Shown: one piece after another, positions 24,848-33,189 of the stretch
Position numbering within the stretch: position 1 is the first letter of the stretch
How the letters are laid out: each line of letters begins with the position of its first letter
NCBI GenBank assembly: GCA_902598315.1
Contig: CACKBP010000005.1
Location: forward strand, 32,583-96,582
From: an uncultured Pelagibacteraceae bacterium
Lineage (GTDB): Bacteria; Pseudomonadota; Alphaproteobacteria; Pelagibacterales; Pelagibacteraceae
Reading direction: 5' to 3'
Length of the DNA: 64,000 bases
Notes under the pieces: model-generated
What the model was told of the DNA's origin: nothing
Databases searched by the model: none
What the model saw: the letters and a program-made list of their open reading frames with translations, nothing else
Position numbers and translations under genes: made by a program

Positions 24848-25864
24848 TTAAGCCGCTGAATCTTTTTCTAATTTTTCAGACCATTCTCCTTTTGAAGACA
24901 GCCCATTCATTTTTGCTCTGTGATTAAAAGCTTTTTGAATATTTTCAGTATTTTTTTGGTCTTTACCGAATTCTTTAAGGGCACTTGCTTGTAAACCTCT
25001 CCCATAAGAAAAAGTAATTAAAAAACTTGTATCATTAATTTTATTAATTTCATTTAAGTTTTTGCTTGACTCAATTTCAGTTTGACCTCCCGATAAAAAA
25101 GCAATGCCAGGCACTTCTGACGGAACATTTTTTTTAAGACAATCTAATGTTTTTTTTGCAATTTGTTCAGCACTGGATTTTTCTTTACAGTCTATGCCAG
25201 GAATTATCATATTAGGTTTTAAAACAGTTCCCTTTAAATCAACTTTATGAGTATTTAACTCATTATAACATTCATTAAGAACGTCAGTAGTCACATCGTA
25301 ACATTTATCTATATTATGTGAGCCATCCATTAAAACTTCTGGCTCTATAATAGGAACCATTTTTGATTCTTGAACTAAAGCAGCATATCTTGCTAATGCA
25401 TGAGCATTAGACTTTATGGATTGTTTAGAGGGAAAATCATTTCCAATTTTATATACAGCTCTCCACTTTGTGAATCTTGCGCCTAGTTTGTAGTATTCTT
25501 TTAATCTTTCTCTTAATCCATCTAATCCCTCAGTAATTGTCTCATCATTAGAGCCTGCCATAGGTTTTGCACCCTTATCTACTTTTATTCCAGGTATAAC
25601 ACCATGTTTTGAAATTAGCTCAGGTATCGTAAGACCTAAAGTTGTTGTCTGTCTGATAGTTTCATCAAATAAAATTACACCGCCTATGTAATTTTTCATT
25701 GCACTTGAATTAAAAAGTGTTTGTCTAAAATTTAGTCTATTTTGTTCAAGATTGTCGACATTAATACTTTTGAATCTTTTTGCTATAGTACCAGTGCTTT
25801 CATCTGCAGCTAAAATACCTTTACCTTTTTCACACATTTTTTTAGCTATCTCATTTAATTCCAT
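24848..25864 (-). CDS. fbaB: Fructose-bisphosphate aldolase class I
   Basis: GILAADES, GIKVDKG, KWRAV, VPIIEPEV, LKPNM, FLSGGQ, FSYGR. Confidence 0.96.
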   Translation of the reverse strand: MELNEIAKKMCEKGKGILAADESTGTIAKRFKSINVDNLEQNRLNFRQTLFNSSAMKNYIGGVILFDETIRQTTTLGLTIPELISKHGVIPGIKVDKGAKPMAGSNDETITEGLDGLRERLKEYYKLGARFTKWRAVYKIGNDFPSKQSIKSNAHALARYAALVQESKMVPIIEPEVLMDGSHNIDKCYDVTTDVLNECYNELNTHKVDLKGTVLKPNMIIPGIDCKEKSSAEQIAKKTLDCLKKNVPSEVPGIAFLSGGQTEIESSKNLNEINKINDTSFLITFSYGRGLQASALKEFGKDQKNTENIQKAFNHRAKMNGLSSKGEWSEKLEKDSAA

Positions 25865-25873
25865 AAAAGTTTT

Positions 25874-27064
25874 TTATTTTAAAACACTCAGACCAGGCAA
25901 GTCTTTTCCTTCAAGGTATTCTAGAAAGGCGCCTCCTGCTGTTGATAAGTGAGTAAAAAACAGTTTTTCTTTACTTTTGTTTACTGCAGAGAGCGTATCT
26001 CCACCTCCTAAAATCGAAATTAAAGATTTATTTTTAGTATTTTCTGAAATTTTTTTTGCTATAGACATTGTTCCATCTTTAAAATTTTCATTTTCAAAAT
26101 AACCAGCCGGGCCATTCCATAAAAGAGTATTTGAGTTATCTATTTTACTGCAAATTGATTTTATTGTTTCTTTTCCTATATCTAAAATAATCTCGTCCTT
26201 TTTTATATCTTTTAGTTTTTTATTTATACCGTTACCTGATAATTCTTTTCCTACTTTACAATCTTCAGGTATGATTATTTCACAATTTTTTTCATCTGCT
26301 TGTTTAATGATCTTTTCTATAATATTTTTTGTATTTTTTTCTACTAGAGATTTTCCCACTCGATAACCCTTAAATGAAATAAAATTATTAGCCATTGCTC
26401 CAACTATTACAAGATTATCAACCTCTTTTATTAAATTAGATATAACATTAATTTTTGTAGATATTTTTGCACCACCTATAATACATGTTACAGGCCTCTT
26501 TTTATTTTTCGTAATAAAATTAATAGCGTTAATTTCTTTTTTCATTAAAAAACCTGCATAAGATTTTTTAACAAATTTTGTGATTTTATGAATCGAAGCT
26601 TGTTTTCTATGAGAGCACGAAAAAGCATCGTTAATATAAATATCACAAATTGAACCCAGTCTTTTTGCAAAAACCTCGTCGTTCTCCTCCTCCTCTTTAA
26701 AATATCTAATATTTTCAAATAAAATTATGTCTCCTTCTTTATTGTATGAAAATTCTTCCATAATATTTCTTTTTAAGTTCCCTTTGTAGAAATAAACATT
26801 CGTATTTAACTTTTTTTTTAAATATCTATGTATTGGATCAAGCGAGAGTTCCGGCACTCTTTGACCCTTTGGCCTTCCTAAGTGACTCAAAATTATGATT
26901 TTAGCTTTTTTTTTTATTAATGTTTTAATGAGTGGAAAACACAAATTTATTCTAGTGTCATCCTGGATTATATTATCTTTAATTGGAACATTAAAATCTA
27001 ACCGCAACATAACAGTCTTATTTTGAACATCTAAATTTTCAGAAAAAAAATTTATATTCTCCAT
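25874..27064 (-). CDS. pgk: Phosphoglycerate kinase
   Basis: RLDFNVP, SHLGRP, NDAF..SHR, GGAK, WNGP, STAGGAFLEYLEG. Confidence 0.96.
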   Translation of the reverse strand: MENINFFSENLDVQNKTVMLRLDFNVPIKDNIIQDDTRINLCFPLIKTLIKKKAKIIILSHLGRPKGQRVPELSLDPIHRYLKKKLNTNVYFYKGNLKRNIMEEFSYNKEGDIILFENIRYFKEEEENDEVFAKRLGSICDIYINDAFSCSHRKQASIHKITKFVKKSYAGFLMKKEINAINFITKNKKRPVTCIIGGAKISTKINVISNLIKEVDNLVIVGAMANNFISFKGYRVGKSLVEKNTKNIIEKIIKQADEKNCEIIIPEDCKVGKELSGNGINKKLKDIKKDEIILDIGKETIKSICSKIDNSNTLLWNGPAGYFENENFKDGTMSIAKKISENTKNKSLISILGGGDTLSAVNKSKEKLFFTHLSTAGGAFLEYLEGKDLPGLSVLK

Positions 27065-27074
27065 TAGGTCTGAC

Positions 27075-29057
27075 TTAATTTCTTAGATGATTTTGAATTA
27101 TATTTAAGATTTTTTCCTCTGTTAAATTAAAATGTTCATAAATTTTTTTGTAAGGGGCGCTTTCACCAAAACTCTCTATACCAAAACTATAACCTTTATC
27201 TCCTCTATACTTTTGCCAAGAAGAAACTGAGCCTGCCTCGATTGTAAATACCACAGAGTTTGAATCGAATATCTCTTTCTTGTAGGCTTCTGGTTGTTTA
27301 TCAAATAAATCCATACAAGGCATTGAAACAACTTTTGATTCAATTTTATTTTCTTTTAACCTTTCTTGAACTTTTATAGCCAATTCTAATTCTGAACCAG
27401 ATGCTACTAATATGACATTGCTCTCATGGGAAGTTACTTTTATTGTATAAGCTCCATTTGCACATTTGTTGGTCTCTGAATACTCTGGGTTTATGTAAGG
27501 TAGCTTTTGCCTTGATAACACAATCGCACTTGGAGTATTTTTACTTTTAAGAGCAATCTCCCAGCATTCTAAAGTTTCATTAATATCAGCTGGTCTAAAT
27601 ACATTTAAATTAGGAATTGCTCTTAAACCAGCTAGTTGCTCTATTGGTTGATGCGTTGGCCCATCCTCTCCAAGCCCAATAGAATCGTGTGAAAAAATAT
27701 ATATTACTTTAAGTCCCATTAAAGCTGATAATCTAATTGAAGGTTTACAATAATCAGAAAAAATTAAAAATGTTCCTCCATAAGGTATTAAGCCACCATA
27801 CAATGCTAATCCATTCATAACTGCCGCCATACCATGTTCTCTGACCCCGTAATGAATATAATTTCCATTAAAATTTTTTGAATTTACTATGACTGAGTTA
27901 GAAGTTTTTGTATTATTTGAGCCGCTTAAATCAGCTGAACCCCCGATTAATTGAGGAAGAATACCAGTTAAACTTTCTATTGTTTTTGCAGAACACTGCC
28001 TGGTTGCTAAGCTTGGTTTAGAAGTAAAATATTTAGATTTTTCCTCTTTAATTAAATTAACTAATTTTGAGTTATCAAGTTCTTTATTAATATTCTCTAA
28101 TTCTATTAAAATTTTTGATTTTTTTTTATTAATATCGTTTTTCCATTTTTCCTCTAACTTTTCTCCCTTTTCACCAATTTTTTTCCACTCATTTAAAATA
28201 TCATCAGGTATTACAAATGGTTTATTATTCCATTTAAGTTTTTTTCTCACTAATGCTATTTCATCTTCTCCCAATGGAGCGCCATGAGACGATGACTTGC
28301 CAGATTTATTAGGAGAACCGAAACCAATAATTGTCTTACAGGAAATTATTGTTGGCTTATTTGATTTTGTAGATTTAGTAATAGCACTAGAAATCTGCTT
28401 ATTGTTATGCCCATCAATTTCTAAAAAATTCCAGCCGTATGATTCAAATCTTTTTTTATAGTTATCAGATACACTTAAAGATGTAGATCCATCAATTGAT
28501 ATTTTATTATTGTCAAAAAAAACAATTAAATTCTTAAGTTTTAAATGACCTGCTAAACTCATGGCCTCATGACTTATACCTTCCATTAAATCTCCATCAC
28601 TCGCAACTACATAAGTTTTATTATTAATTATACTTTTCCCAAATTTTTTGCTCAAAATTTCCTCTGCTAAAGCCATTCCAACAGCATTACCTAAACCTTG
28701 CCCAAGTGGGCCAGTTGTAGTTTCAATTCCAGAACCTTTTTTATATTCGGGATGGCCAGCACAAATAGAATTTAACTGTCTAAAATTTTTTATGTCCTCT
28801 AAAGAAACTGATTTGTAGCCAGTAAGGTAAAGCAATGAATAAAGAAGCATCGAACCGTGACCAGCTGATAAAATAAATCTATCTCTATTAATCCATTCTG
28901 GATTTTTAGGGTTAAACCTGAGGTGGTATTTAAATAAAACTGTAGCTACATCAGCCATGCCCATCGGCATGCCTGGGTGGCCAGAGTTTGCTTTTTGCAC
29001 AGCATCGATTGAGAGAAACCTTACTGCATTTGATAAATGATTTAAATTTATACTCAC
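27075..29057 (-). CDS. tkt: Transketolase
   Basis: SGHPGMPMG, DRFILSAGH, TTGPLGQG, DGDLMEG, GEDGPTHQP; GTG start. Confidence 0.97.
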   Translation of the reverse strand: MSINLNHLSNAVRFLSIDAVQKANSGHPGMPMGMADVATVLFKYHLRFNPKNPEWINRDRFILSAGHGSMLLYSLLYLTGYKSVSLEDIKNFRQLNSICAGHPEYKKGSGIETTTGPLGQGLGNAVGMALAEEILSKKFGKSIINNKTYVVASDGDLMEGISHEAMSLAGHLKLKNLIVFFDNNKISIDGSTSLSVSDNYKKRFESYGWNFLEIDGHNNKQISSAITKSTKSNKPTIISCKTIIGFGSPNKSGKSSSHGAPLGEDEIALVRKKLKWNNKPFVIPDDILNEWKKIGEKGEKLEEKWKNDINKKKSKILIELENINKELDNSKLVNLIKEEKSKYFTSKPSLATRQCSAKTIESLTGILPQLIGGSADLSGSNNTKTSNSVIVNSKNFNGNYIHYGVREHGMAAVMNGLALYGGLIPYGGTFLIFSDYCKPSIRLSALMGLKVIYIFSHDSIGLGEDGPTHQPIEQLAGLRAIPNLNVFRPADINETLECWEIALKSKNTPSAIVLSRQKLPYINPEYSETNKCANGAYTIKVTSHESNVILVASGSELELAIKVQERLKENKIESKVVSMPCMDLFDKQPEAYKKEIFDSNSVVFTIEAGSVSSWQKYRGDKGYSFGIESFGESAPYKKIYEHFNLTEEKILNIIQNHLRN

Positions 29058-29114: not shown

Positions 29115-29438
29115 ATGAGCATAATTGAAAAGAAAGAAAAAAATTTAAAGCTATTAATTAATAAACTTGACTCACTCACTTTAACTTATTCACAACCGAC
29201 ATATGAGATAGAGAAAATAAAAACTGAAAAAAATGAAATCTTAAGACAAAAAATAAAAATAGAAAACAAGAATCAAGAGCTATTACGCGAGCACAAATAC
29301 TTGAAAGAGAAAATTAAAAGATTGCAATTAGAGGTCAAAAAGAAGATGGAGTTACAAAATAATTTTAACCAAGAAATAGATGAATTAAGTCAAGAAACAG
29401 AAAATTTAGTAACTGAAATTGAAAAATGGCAAATATAA
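29115..29438 (+). CDS. Coiled-coil protein upstream of zapA (ZapB/ZauP-like)
   Basis: Heptad-rich 107 aa protein overlapping the zapA start. Confidence 0.6.
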   Translation: MSIIEKKEKNLKLLINKLDSLTLTYSQPTYEIEKIKTEKNEILRQKIKIENKNQELLREHKYLKEKIKRLQLEVKKKMELQNNFNQEIDELSQETENLVTEIEKWQI

Positions 29439-29872
29439 GCGTAAAATTTAATAACAGAGATTATTTACTTTCTTGCGATGATGGACAAGAAGAATCGCTT
29501 AAAAAACTAACTAAATTTTTGGATAATAAATACTCAGAATTAAAAGATAAACTTGGAAATATCGGAGAAAATAAGCTTTTATTGATCACCACAATTCAAT
29601 TAATTGACGAATACTTTGATCTTAAAGAAAAAGTTACGCAACAAAAAATAAAATTAGATAAAATTATTAATAAATTTAAAGAAATAAAGTCATTAGCTAT
29701 TGAGTATAAAGATGAAAAAGATATCGAAATAAAAAAACTTAACAGTGAACTTGAAAATTTTAAAAAAACAATTGAAGAAAATAATAATTTATATGAGTCA
29801 ATGCTTGATAAAACTACCCAATCACTTGAGAAAATAATTTCAAACACTGAGTCTCTATCCAAAATACAATAA
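29426..29872 (+). CDS. zapA: Cell division protein ZapA
   Basis: ISVKFNNRDYLLSCDDGQEESL, GNIGENKLL...LIDE, C-terminal coiled coil. Confidence 0.88.
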   Translation: MANISVKFNNRDYLLSCDDGQEESLKKLTKFLDNKYSELKDKLGNIGENKLLLITTIQLIDEYFDLKEKVTQQKIKLDKIINKFKEIKSLAIEYKDEKDIEIKKLNSELENFKKTIEENNNLYESMLDKTTQSLEKIISNTESLSKIQ

Positions 29873-30424
29873 ATGGATAAAAAGGGGTTAATTAGAAAAA
29901 AATTTTTCTTCTTAAGAAAAAAAAATTACTTTGAAGTAAAAGATAGTTATTTCACACCTATAATTAAATTAATATCGAAAATTAAAATAGATAGAAAAAT
30001 TAATGTATCAATTTATTATCCATCTTTTTACGAGGTGAATGTACTAAAACTCCTTGATAATGAATTTTCTAAAAATTGCAACTTTTTGTTACCAATTATT
30101 GAGAAAAATAACAAAATGCAATTCTACAAATGGAAAAAGAATGATATTTTATTCGTAAATAAATATGGTTTACTCGAGCCAAAAAAGTCTAGAAAAATAA
30201 TCCCAGATGTAGCTTTAGTTCCAATTTTAAGCTTCGATAAGAAAAAAAATAGAATTGGTTATGGCAAAGGTTATTATGATAAATATTTAAATAAATACAG
30301 AAATTCTAATAAAAAGATTTTAACTATCGGTGTTGCTTTTTCTTTTCAAAAATATCATAAACTGCCAGTGAACCATAAAGATTTTAAACTAGATTTTGTT
30401 GTTACAGAAAAAGGTATGATATAA
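29873..30424 (+). CDS. ygfA: 5-formyltetrahydrofolate cyclo-ligase
   Basis: YGLLEP, PDVALVP, RIGYGKGYYD, HKDFKLD.VVTE. Confidence 0.93.
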   Translation: MDKKGLIRKKFFFLRKKNYFEVKDSYFTPIIKLISKIKIDRKINVSIYYPSFYEVNVLKLLDNEFSKNCNFLLPIIEKNNKMQFYKWKKNDILFVNKYGLLEPKKSRKIIPDVALVPILSFDKKKNRIGYGKGYYDKYLNKYRNSNKKILTIGVAFSFQKYHKLPVNHKDFKLDFVVTEKGMI

Positions 30425-31230
30425 TGAGAATTTTAGTTCTAGGAGATGTAGTAGGTTCATCTGGAAGAAAAGCTTTAAAAAAAAATTTATCAAATATAAT
30501 AAAAAAAAATAAAATTGAATTTTCAATAATCAACGGAGAAAATGCTGCTGACGATGGGAAAGGGATTACTAAAAAAATAGCTGAGGAACTTTTCTCTCAA
30601 GGGATAGATGTGATTACATCTGGCAACCATATTTGGGACAAAGAAGAAACCGCTAGTTATATTGAAAAAGAAATTAGACTTCTTAGACCAGCTAACTTAG
30701 CAGATGGTTCCCCAGGAAAGGGTTTTGGTATTTTTTCATCTAAAAAAAAAAAATTTAAAATTGGAGTCATAAATTTGATGGGAAATGTTTTTATGAGGAA
30801 AACAGATGATGTTTTCAAAGTAGCGAAAGAGATTAGTAAAAAAATTATTTTGAAAAAAAATGTTGATTTTTCTGTTATAGATTTTCATGGTGAAATCACA
30901 AGCGAGAAAATGGCTATAGCTCATTTTTTTGATGGTGCTTGTACTTGTGTAGTTGGAACACATACTCACGTTCCAACTGCAGATACCAGAATTTTAGAAA
31001 AAGGAACTGCTTACCAAACAGATTTAGGTATGTGTGGAGATTATAATTCTGTAATAGGGATGAATAAAGAAAATTCATTAAAAAGATTTCTTAAAGATAA
31101 AGAATCACTAAAGCATTTTCCCGCTGAAGGAGAAGGAACATTATCTGGCGTTATTATCGATGCAAACGAAAACACAGGTCTAGCAAAAGACGTATCTAGA
31201 ATAATAATTGGCGGATCATTGGAAATATAA
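30424..31230 (+). CDS. ymdB: TIGR00282/YmdB metallophosphoesterase
   Basis: GDVVG, NGEN, TSGNH, DFHGEITSEK, GTHTHV, TDLGMCG. Confidence 0.93.
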   Translation: MRILVLGDVVGSSGRKALKKNLSNIIKKNKIEFSIINGENAADDGKGITKKIAEELFSQGIDVITSGNHIWDKEETASYIEKEIRLLRPANLADGSPGKGFGIFSSKKKKFKIGVINLMGNVFMRKTDDVFKVAKEISKKIILKKNVDFSVIDFHGEITSEKMAIAHFFDGACTCVVGTHTHVPTADTRILEKGTAYQTDLGMCGDYNSVIGMNKENSLKRFLKDKESLKHFPAEGEGTLSGVIIDANENTGLAKDVSRIIIGGSLEI

Positions 31231-31232
31231 TT

Positions 31233-31955
31233 ATGGCAGGTCATTCTCACTGGGCAGGTATAAAACATAAAAAAGGAAGAGCTGATAAAGAGAGGTCAAA
31301 AATATTTTCAAAACTTTCAAGAGAGATAACTGTTGCAGCTAGACTTGGAGATAAAGATCCCCACATAAACCCAAGACTAAGAACTGCTATACAGGCTGCT
31401 AAACAGGCAAATATGCCAAAAGATAATATCTTAAGAGCAATAAGTAAGTCAGAGATTTCTGGTGATAAAAATTATGAAAATTTAAGATATGAGGGATTTG
31501 GACCTTTCAACGCTGCTTTAATTATCGAGACATTAACTGATAATAAAAACAGATCTGCTTCAAGTATAAGAACGGTATTACAAAAGAATGGCGGCAGGCT
31601 AGGAGAATCTGGGTCAACTAAACATTTGTTCAATAGCTGTGGAATAATTCACATTGACAGAAATATAATTAGCGAGGAAGAGGTATTTGAGATTGCTTCA
31701 AACTCTGGAGCAAAAGATTGTTTACAACTAAATAATTTTCACGAAATAATTACACGAAAAGATGATTTTTATAAAATCAAAACTGAGTTTGAAAAGAAAA
31801 TAGATAACTTCGCGTACTCAGCCATAGAGTGGCGTGCTTTAAGTATGTTAAATCTTAATAAAGAACAAAGCAGTAAACTAATTGAAGTTTTGACTACTTT
31901 AGATGAGCTAGATGATGTACAAAATGTATTTACTAATGCTAATTTAGATAATTGA
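31233..31955 (+). CDS. yebC: YebC/PmpR family protein
   Basis: MAGHSHWAGIKHKK, NPRLR, YEGFGP, LTDNKNR, DDVQNVF. Confidence 0.96.
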   Translation: MAGHSHWAGIKHKKGRADKERSKIFSKLSREITVAARLGDKDPHINPRLRTAIQAAKQANMPKDNILRAISKSEISGDKNYENLRYEGFGPFNAALIIETLTDNKNRSASSIRTVLQKNGGRLGESGSTKHLFNSCGIIHIDRNIISEEEVFEIASNSGAKDCLQLNNFHEIITRKDDFYKIKTEFEKKIDNFAYSAIEWRALSMLNLNKEQSSKLIEVLTTLDELDDVQNVFTNANLDN

Positions 31956-31959
31956 CTTA

Positions 31960-32457
31960 ATGAAAATAATTGGAATAGATCCAGGATTAAGTGGGGCAAT
32001 AGCGATATTAAAAGATAATAAAGTTTTAAAAATTTTTGATATACCGGTGATGTCAGAAGGGAAGAAAAATAAAAAACAACTTAATAGTGCGCAATTAGTC
32101 AACTTAATAAAGGAAAATACTATCAATGATGAAGATGTGGCAGTTGTAGTTGAACAAGTCAATGCTATGCCAGGCCAAGGAGTAACAAGTATGTTTAATT
32201 TCGGACAAACATTTGGAGCGATAAAAGGTATTTGTGCAGCTTTAAATTTACCTATATTTTTTGTTAGACCATCTAAATGGAAAAAACATTTTGAGCTAAT
32301 TAATTCTTCTAAAGATGCTAGCAGAACTAAGACAATAGAAATGTATCCCTCTTTATCCAGCCAGCTTGCAAAAAAAAAAGATGTTAATAAATCTGATGCT
32401 ATCTTAATCGCTAGATATTTTAGTGAGACAAGGGTATTAGATAATAATAACCGATAA
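31960..32457 (+). CDS. RuvC-superfamily Holliday junction resolvase of MOC1/phage type
   Basis: IGIDPGLSGAIA, VVEQV.AMPGQGVTSMFNFG, RPSKWKKHF.L, KDASR, YPSLSSQLAKKKD...DAILIA. Confidence 0.8.
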   Translation: MKIIGIDPGLSGAIAILKDNKVLKIFDIPVMSEGKKNKKQLNSAQLVNLIKENTINDEDVAVVVEQVNAMPGQGVTSMFNFGQTFGAIKGICAALNLPIFFVRPSKWKKHFELINSSKDASRTKTIEMYPSLSSQLAKKKDVNKSDAILIARYFSETRVLDNNNR

Positions 32458-32508
32458 TTTTAATAAAAACGCCAAATTCATGACACATTCTGAAAGTAAT
32501 GAACTTTA

Positions 32509-33189
32509 ATGGAACAAGATATTGCAGCACAAATAGTTGGATTAGGTGGCGCTTCTGATTTTTCATTGTGGAGCCTATTTTTGCGAGCTGATTTTGTGGT
32601 CAAATTTGTAATAATCTTACTTATAGCAAGCTCAATATTCTCATGGGCTTTAATTTTCGATAAATTTAAATTATTTAAAAATATAAATAAATCTACAGAA
32701 GATTTTGAAAAAAAATTTTGGAAAGCTAAATCAGCTGAAAATTTTAACAACAATCTTCCCGTTAACTCTAGTGATCCTGCTACATTAATATTTAAAGCAG
32801 CAATGACAGAGTTAATAAAAACTAAGAGACAATCATCAGCAGTTCAATCAGCAAGAGTTCAACGAATTTTAGAAATAGCAACAGACAACGAAATAAAAAA
32901 AGTTGAAAAAAATTTTACTTTTCTAGCTACTATTGGATCTACAGCACCTTTTATAGGATTATTTGGAACAGTTTGGGGTATAATGAATTCTTTTCAATCA
33001 ATCGCTATTTCAAGAAATACAAGCCTTGCAATTGTTGCGCCTGGTATCGCTGAAGCATTATTCGCAACCGCTTTAGGATTATTGGCTGCTATACCAGCGG
33101 TAGTTGCTTACAATAAATTTAATAGTGACTCTAGAAGATACTTTTCAAAAATTGATAATTTTTCTAAACGATTTCTATCTATAATTTAA
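32509..33189 (+). CDS. tolQ: TolQ
   Basis: FLATIGSTAPFIGLFGTVWGIM, VAPGIAEAL.ATA.GL.AAIPA. Confidence 0.96.
   Translation: MEQDIAAQIVGLGGASDFSLWSLFLRADFVVKFVIILLIASSIFSWALIFDKFKLFKNINKSTEDFEKKFWKAKSAENFNNNLPVNSSDPATLIFKAAMTELIKTKRQSSAVQSARVQRILEIATDNEIKKVEKNFTFLATIGSTAPFIGLFGTVWGIMNSFQSIAISRNTSLAIVAPGIAEALFATALGLLAAIPAVVAYNKFNSDSRRYFSKIDNFSKRFLSII

Follow-up and report, generated by a model that had tools for sequence, protein, structure and literature searches.

The gene that lies between yebC and tolQ in SAR11 bacteria, here called X, encodes a RuvC-fold nuclease of the phage/MOC1-type family and stands in the place that ruvC, ruvA and ruvB take in other Alphaproteobacteria. X is likely (probability about 0.8) to be the main Holliday-junction resolvase of the cell: RecA would form the junction, RecG would move it, and a dimer of X would cut it by nick and counter-nick, as MOC1 does. 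Its position, fold, conservation and selection, and the absence of Ruv matches in the samples, are the observations from which we infer activity, dimer formation, a partnership with RecG and a phage origin.

Position of X in the yebC-tolQ slot

The window (the whole stretch of 64,000 nucleotides that was analysed) comes from the assembly of an uncultured Pelagibacteraceae bacterium. On its + strand the gene order is ymdB-yebC-X-tolQ-tolR-tolA-tolB-pal-cpoB-tilS-ftsH, and the following features make up the locus.

29426..31230, + strand: zapA-ygfA-ymdB, conserved upstream stretch of the same gene string
31233..31955, + strand: yebC (PF01709, PF20772), upstream anchor of the slot
31960..32457, + strand: X (P0001), ATG start, MOC1/phage-family RuvC-fold nuclease of 165 residues, candidate stand-alone Holliday-junction resolvase
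32458..32508, no strand: 51-nt spacer between X and tolQ, the position of ruvA, ruvB and ybgC in other Alphaproteobacteria
32509..33189, + strand: tolQ, downstream anchor of the slot, then tolR-tolA-tolB-pal-cpoB-tilS-ftsH

The initial annotation had described a single 165-residue gene between yebC and tolQ, and an ORF of that length was found at 31960-32457. The interval given for it, 31960..32508, has the correct start, 4 nt past the yebC stop; its end takes in the spacer that separates the X stop from tolQ at 32509. The motifs quoted for the protein (GIDPG, VVEQ and a C-terminus of the form WKKHF...SKD.SR...YPSLSSQL.KKKD) are all present in the translation. The GC3 of X is host-like (0.205 versus 0.16-0.24).

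The P. aeruginosa annotation has the order yebC-ruvC-ruvA-ruvB-ybgC-tolQ. The corresponding order yebC-ruvCAB-(ybgC)-tolQ was found in 14 of 20 RuvC-bearing alphaproteobacterial regions, which were not a random draw, and 11 of them included ybgC. The order yebC-X-tolQ was seen in 38/38 same-genus loci and 80/80 named Pelagibacterales records, and is not due to chance. Ten loci from other SAR11 genera comprised five with yebC-X-ybgC-tolQ (five genera), four without ybgC, and one of the truncated form (G065) described below. Since five SAR11 genera keep ybgC between X and tolQ, X replaces exactly ruvCAB, and ybgC left separately; a ybgC-like thioesterase is encoded elsewhere in the source genome (C4, E 8e-19). 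The slot order in P. aeruginosa, in the alphaproteobacterial regions and in the SAR11 loci thus bears out the earlier proposal of an in-place replacement of ruvCAB. Absence of ruvA, ruvB and ybgC from the locus also stands, but the inclusion of ybgC in the replacement does not, its loss being a separate event.

Other gene junctions in the window were noted. On the - strand, at 24848-29057, pgk and fba come directly after tkt without an intervening ORF for gap (GAPDH), in contrast to the usual tkt-gap-pgk order of Alphaproteobacteria. At 29426-29873 zapA and ygfA abut, leaving no room for the 6S RNA gene ssrS, which lies between these genes in many proteobacteria.

Family identity and predicted fold

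X scored below the cut-off of the Pfam RuvC profile (PF02075; 15.8 versus 22.2 bits) and far below that of the NCBIfam RuvC profile (NF000711; 13.7 versus 163 bits). PHROG 1770, annotated 'Holliday junction resolvase', gave a full-length match to residues 1-154 with an E value of 1.4e-36. The best match to X among the sequences of solved structures was NtMOC1 (E 2.1e-21), the best bacterial RuvC giving an E value of 0.03. An AlphaFold model of X, computed from an input of 95 sequences, had a pLDDT of 94.7. This predicted model superimposed on MOC1 structures with TM scores of 0.79-0.86 and an rmsd of about 2 Å (TM 0.85 at an rmsd of 2.1-2.2 Å, the latter for 6kvo), and on bacterial RuvC with TM scores of 0.49-0.63 (0.57-0.63 for most chains); the score on bIL67 RuvC was 0.58. 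The superposition on MOC1 that the initial annotation had proposed therefore separates MOC1 (TM 0.85) from most bacterial RuvC chains, and together with the PHROG 1770 and NtMOC1 matches it upholds the suggested MOC1/phage-family identity. X is a member of the phage/MOC1-type family, and is neither plant MOC1 proper nor canonical RuvC. Some copies of X are already labelled 'crossover junction endodeoxyribonuclease' in databases.

Active-site and DNA-contact residues

Residues were counted in 48 SAR11 rows and 84 other rows of the family. Equivalences to NtMOC1 were taken from a sequence alignment, and the roles of NtMOC1 residues from PMC7078210. The main elements are listed below.

31978..31980, + strand: D7, equivalent to the metal ligand D116 of NtMOC1, in 48/48 SAR11 rows and 84/84 other family rows
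32152..32184, + strand: E65 (NtMOC1 E175) and a loop matching the MOC1 base-recognition loop (alignment, with PMC7078210 for the loop)
32203..32241, + strand: helix with G82, G86, G90 and A94, corresponding in sequence to the MOC1 dimer-interface residues G192, G196, G200 and A204
32311..32313, + strand: K118, aligned with the catalytic lysine K229 of ZmMOC1, in 48/48 SAR11 rows
32371..32397, + strand: basic patch K138-K139-K140, with D141, N143 and D146 (NtMOC1 R250-K252, D253 and E258)

The NtMOC1-equivalent residues of X are invariant or nearly so among the 48 SAR11 rows. X keeps three of the four residues of the MOC1 catalytic tetrad D116/D118/E175/E258; where MOC1 has the extra aspartate D118, X has G9, which is found in all 48 SAR11 and all 84 other family rows. 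D141, N143 and D146 each occur in 48/48 SAR11 rows, and further equivalences pair K38 with R149, K108 with K218 and D146 with E258. Judged from sequence only, the helix residues G82, G86, G90 and A94 are kept in 48, 48, 48 and 47 of the 48 rows respectively. The metal-C histidine of MOC1 (ZmMOC1 H253) aligns to V142, next to the invariant D141. Within the base-recognition loop X has M70 for Y180, Q73 for the cytosine-reading D183, and V75 for K185. All 48 SAR11 rows carry M70 and Q73 in place of the MOC1 base-recognition pair Y180/D183.

The states G9, Q73, M70 and V75 are those of the majority of the 84 non-SAR11 family rows, and RuvC is described as having no analogue of ZmMOC1 D117 (PMC11183143). 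X therefore has the general active site of the family, and plant MOC1 is the derived form.

RuvA, RuvB and canonical RuvC were not found in the genomes searched

The source genome (G000) is 83% complete, so the absence of genes from it leans on its relatives. RuvB was scored with the RuvB_C profile in preference to RuvB_N (PF05496), because RuvB_N also responds in archaea (14/14 controls); RuvB_N gave four weak AAA+ matches in G000, two of them marginally over the cut-off, and was set aside. No RuvB_C match over the cut-off was found in 201 Pelagibacteraceae genomes, many of them single-contig, or in 151 genomes of the order, and one was found in 287 of 298 other Alphaproteobacteria (a sample that includes the unpublished G282). 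RuvA_N gave no match in G000, in 30 Pelagibacteraceae genomes or in 10 sister-family genomes, and was detected in 11/11 small-genome controls. Canonical RuvC (TIGR00228) was found in none of the five genomes searched. When RuvA, RuvB and RuvC of E. coli and of AT-rich Alphaproteobacteria were searched against G000 by tblastn, short AAA+ matches only were returned. The genome-wide search that the initial annotation had called for thus yielded no ruvA, ruvB or canonical ruvC in the genomes searched, single-contig ones included. The recG search called for alongside it did find RecG, both in G000 (636 bits, just under the cut-off) and in 5/5 genomes. RusA and RadA were each found in 0/5 genomes. 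YqgF/RuvX was present in 5/5; each of the 10 bacterial controls, RuvB-bearing genomes, had it as well.

Nine sub-threshold RuvB_C matches in Pelagibacteraceae were rejected, as they lie in frames of 164-216 residues, too short for RuvB. A lone RuvB_C match in G618 (L173, f48) is 25% identical to E. coli RuvB. The match sits where a contig begins, next to cytochrome oxidase-like genes, in a genome 82% complete with 4% contamination, and may be a phage-type ATPase or contamination.

RadA/Sms was not found in nine small marine genomes (G000, G068, G075, G037, G275, G296, G426, G414 and G257). As it is also missing from 2/2 RuvABC-bearing genomes of family f9, its loss is not tied to the resolvase swap. 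A second strong match to the RecG profile, probably Mfd, was seen in G037, G275, G296 and G426, and none in G000 or G075, which suggests loss of Mfd in Pelagibacteraceae; the RecG-profile regions of G000 are at C1 73430-75184 and C10 8377-9609.

X is an old core gene of SAR11

X was detected in 194 of 200 sampled Pelagibacteraceae genomes and in 11/11 genera, nearly always as a single copy. The sample takes in the unpublished G103 and G171, and the result is the same either way. All 80 named records returned for X carry titles of Pelagibacteraceae, Pelagibacter or Pelagibacterales, which marks the source genome as a member of SAR11. The median dN/dS was 0.07 for X, compared with 0.11 for yebC and 0.05 for tolQ. 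Because X is widespread, is under this constraint and has host-like GC3, we conclude that it is an old core gene.

Twenty longer proteins, seemingly fused forms, each on one contig and mostly joined to neighbours such as yebC or tolQ, were discarded as artefacts of assembly or gene calling; plant MOC1 was not among them. At locus L052 (G065), residues 1-72 of X are joined to the last 80 residues of tolQ after yebC, by a deletion or an assembly artefact. No RNA run contained more than 0.13 of the sequence words. Contigs over parts of X were present in four metatranscriptomes, one 251-nt piece being without difference, and these are no proof of transcription.

Origin of X

Trees were made by 'quick' searches; a 116-row tree used 60 of 102 eligible representative rows, and later trees used subsets of 46 and 44 rows from which long or duplicate rows were left out. 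In the 116-row tree, 14 SAR11 rows and four close metagenomic rows formed one branch (SH-aLRT 99) on the side of phage, prophage and metagenome sequences, and 23 alphaproteobacterial RuvCs formed another (99), across a long branch. After nine non-alphaproteobacterial RuvCs were added, a clade of X with alphaproteobacterial RuvC was rejected (p-AU 9.8e-47, 164 log-likelihood units; LG+G4, quick search). X is thus not nested in alphaproteobacterial RuvC (nesting would have overturned the earlier proposal), and it is unlikely to have come down vertically from the resident ruvC.

Homologues of X were found in 125 phage records, the best 38-40% identical, and at 10 IMG/VR loci, up to 46% identical and none beside yebC or tolQ. 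The family comprises 13,636 clusters with the shared motifs MPGQGV..MF.FG and WKKHF. Outside SAR11, strong matches in the class were limited to 3 of 298 genomes, two of them in prophage-like surroundings as read from the neighbouring genes, and a search with P0251 for named chromosomal relatives outside SAR11 returned nothing. X was probably captured from a phage, although a root on the SAR11 branch was not rejected when alphaproteobacterial RuvC was the sole outgroup (p-AU 0.8).

It had also been suggested that X bears specially on the origin of MOC1. Scores against NtMOC1 and ZmMOC1 were 80 and 45 bits for X, 72 and 70 for cyanophage PaV-LD, 72 and 44 for a prophage-like alphaproteobacterial copy (L081), and 50 and 29 for epsilon15. 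On this comparison, which is one of scores only, the suggestion is not sustained.

Other nucleases occupy the slot in lineages without RuvAB

X is absent from the sister family (f2; 0/24 genomes), in which RuvB was found in 0/27. A 126-residue Hjc-like PD-(D/E)XK protein, type A, follows yebC there in 20/20 loci (L058-L077, at about 2310-2700). Type A is present in 27/27 f2 and 0/123 Pelagibacteraceae (f1) genomes, and within the order it and X are mutually exclusive. It matches PF24608 and PHROG 244, and is 51% identical to a Roseobacter phage protein annotated as a resolvase.

Eleven of the 298 non-SAR11 genomes are without RuvB, and 10 of these were examined. In five, the gene next to yebC on its downstream side is a small PD-(D/E)XK-like ORF, and these five define the two further types, B and C, described below. 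The rest comprise two with canonical ruvC in fragmented assemblies, one with a contig ending in yebC, one 0.5-Mb genome with a dUTPase-like gene after yebC, and G492, with no ORF there. In G492 (L217:5645-7800; a single contig of 1.5 Mb), neither an ORF of at least 50 residues nor a ruv remnant lies between yebC and ybgC. RuvA and RuvB were not found in this genome, tolQRAB is gone and pal is kept; it may represent a lineage with no resolvase in the slot.

Type B, a PD-(D/E)XK protein of 97-108 residues matching PHROG 2002, was found in 57/61 genomes from the order that includes G275, which we take to be HIMB59/AEGEAN-169. The order yebC-B-tolQ was seen there in 30/30 loci (L110, L111, L113 and L128-L157), with RuvB in 0/61 and RuvA in 0/16 genomes. 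Type B has no Pfam match and databases call it hypothetical; its fold match to Hjc/Hje is weak (best Foldseek E 7e-3; Z 6.0, rmsd 3.8, 83 aligned residues). HIMB59 has been argued not to belong to SAR11 (PMC3264578). Type C has 168 residues, matches PF24608 and is 45% identical to jumbo-phage proteins. It was detected in 15/19 genomes from the order that includes G296, where RuvB was found in 1/19 and RuvA in 0/12; three of the four genomes missing it also have no yebC, and in the other the contig ends after yebC. Type C loci (L108, L109 and L158-L172) read yebC-C-(ybgC)-tilS-ftsH, the tol-pal genes being missing from the locus. Alignments between types A, B and C are poor (best 40% over 40 residues), and all three are under purifying selection (0.05, 0.064 and 0.085 respectively).

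Four nucleases of two folds, from families annotated as phage resolvases, thus occupy one slot, always without RuvAB, and this is the strongest evidence that X does the job of RuvC alone. A host tree of 2343 columns needs two changes for the losses of ruvAB, but a single clade of all RuvAB-less lineages was not rejected (p-AU 0.064), and composition is biased; ruvAB may instead have been lost once, with serial swaps in the slot thereafter. Somewhat better than even, in our estimate, are the chances of a wider pattern: small-genome marine Alphaproteobacteria would have repeatedly dropped RuvABC and domesticated an available phage resolvase in the same slot, one MOC1-type and three Hjc-like. The ocean bacteria that are most abundant and most recombinogenic would then finish recombination by a motor-free resolvase with RecG alone (RadA was not found either), as chloroplasts do, and the position behind yebC would act as a socket for interchangeable resolvases.

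Proposed mechanism and alternative explanations

We propose that X forms a homodimer joined through the G82/G86/G90/A94 helix, which would bind a four-way junction through K38, K108 and K138-140. The E65-V75 loop may open the crossover. D7, E65 and D146 would coordinate the metal ions for two symmetric nicks, with assistance from K118 and perhaps D141. The dimer would work without RuvA as a scaffold or RuvB as a motor, branch migration coming from RecG and RecA. As Q73 stands in place of MOC1 D183, the preference for cut sites is predicted to differ from the cytosine rule of MOC1.

Some observations count against this reading. D118 is replaced by G9 and H253 by V142, YqgF/RuvX is present and could share the job, and identity to the nearest phage copies is no more than 38-46%. 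Our literature search found no cleavage or genetic data on SAR11 or phage members of the family. The phage RuvC of bIL67 also cuts forks (PMC3864405), and the substrate range of X may therefore be wider than junctions. X might be a broad debranching nuclease acting on forks, flaps, D-loops and junctions, with resolution shared with or done by YqgF/RuvX or RecG-driven unwinding. Such promiscuity of phage RuvC-family enzymes (PMC3864405), the differences between the base-reading residues of X and those of MOC1, the presence of YqgF in 5/5 genomes and a title and abstract that give RuvX a complementary resolvase role in M. smegmatis (PMC11466669) are in keeping with this idea. We nevertheless consider it improbable: YqgF occurs equally in all 10 RuvB-bearing bacterial controls and so is no substitute peculiar to RuvAB-less lineages, the occupation of a single slot by four different genes of resolvase families speaks for junction resolution, and X is much nearer to the junction-specific MOC1 (TM 0.85) than to bIL67 RuvC (TM 0.58).

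The ruvC position of X, its host-like GC3 and a root on the SAR11 branch that is not rejected would also suit a native ruvC that diverged in place after loss of ruvAB, phages and the MOC1 lineage having taken the family from cells, or the likeness being convergent. The 164 log-likelihood units (p-AU 1e-46) that a grouping with alphaproteobacterial RuvC costs make this very unlikely, as do the motifs MPGQGV..MF.FG and WKKHF held in common with the 13,636-cluster family and the entry into the same slot of genes with a PD-(D/E)XK fold, for which RuvC cannot be the ancestor. Harder still to credit is a conserved but non-catalytic role for X in binding junctions or DNA, or a nuclease role that has nothing to do with recombination. 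Two metal ligands of MOC1 (D118 and H253) are indeed unmatched, but RuvC too has no D118 analogue, D7, E65, D141, D146 and K118 are invariant in 48/48 SAR11 rows, and the dN/dS of X is 0.07. A stand-alone junction resolvase remains our preferred reading of X.

Implications and comparison with known systems

Recombination in SAR11 is reported to exceed mutation in rate by a factor of up to 60 (PMC3448164). RuvB is near-universal in the class, yet none was found in the SAR11 samples despite this high recombination. X puts a name to the enzyme by which SAR11 probably completes recombination, and it brings the question within reach of tests on one small protein. If the proposal is correct, a RuvAB-free resolvase that has a sequence preference of its own would influence where crossovers fall, how long tracts are and how forks are rescued, and so bear on SAR11 population genetics. 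The four different nucleases of the slot amount to a natural experiment in which a gene is displaced in place by non-orthologous ones. They also supply bacterial members of the MOC1 family, in which there has been interest as a programmable cutter (PMC10867802). A literature search of openly accessible main texts returned no paper on a SAR11 resolvase or on this replacement, and the main texts of PMC3448164 and PMC4053759 contain no mention of 'ruv'.

Chloroplast MOC1 (6kvn, 6kvo and 6lct for NtMOC1; 6is8, 6jrf and 8kfr for ZmMOC1) resembles X in fold, in the equivalents of D116, E175 and E258, and in the dimer glycines, basic patch, catalytic lysine and C-terminal layout. X differs in having no equivalent of D118, D183 (Q73), Y180 (M70), K185 or H253, in lacking an N-terminal extension and in lying on a bacterial chromosome, and it is not nearer to MOC1 than some phage copies are. 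The PHROG 1770 phages (Salmonella phage epsilon15, Planktothrix phage PaV-LD) share with X D7-P-G9, E65, the MPGQGV loop and W107-K108, the 'Holliday junction resolvase' label of that group being an annotation. In that family the gene is a sporadic phage gene, whereas X is a single-copy, fixed chromosomal core gene; N143 is invariant in SAR11, whereas the family has G, D or N. Bacterial RuvC (TIGR00228, PF02075) has in common with X the RNase H fold, the first-strand Asp, the mid-strand Glu and the slot after yebC, but X falls under all cut-offs, superimposes with TM scores of only 0.57-0.63, does not form a clade with it and has no RuvAB that we could find. The archaeal and phage Hjc-type PD-(D/E)XK resolvases resemble the slot genes of the other three lineages (PF24608, PHROG 244, PHROG 2002), with weak best fold matches to Hjc/Hje; their fold is unrelated to that of X, and the likeness is one of analogy only. 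In E. coli, RusA, a prophage-derived stand-alone resolvase, substitutes together with RecG for RuvABC. That bypass is a laboratory suppressor that depends on a silent gene of another fold, whereas a whole family has X fixed in nature; RusA itself was found in 0/5 genomes.
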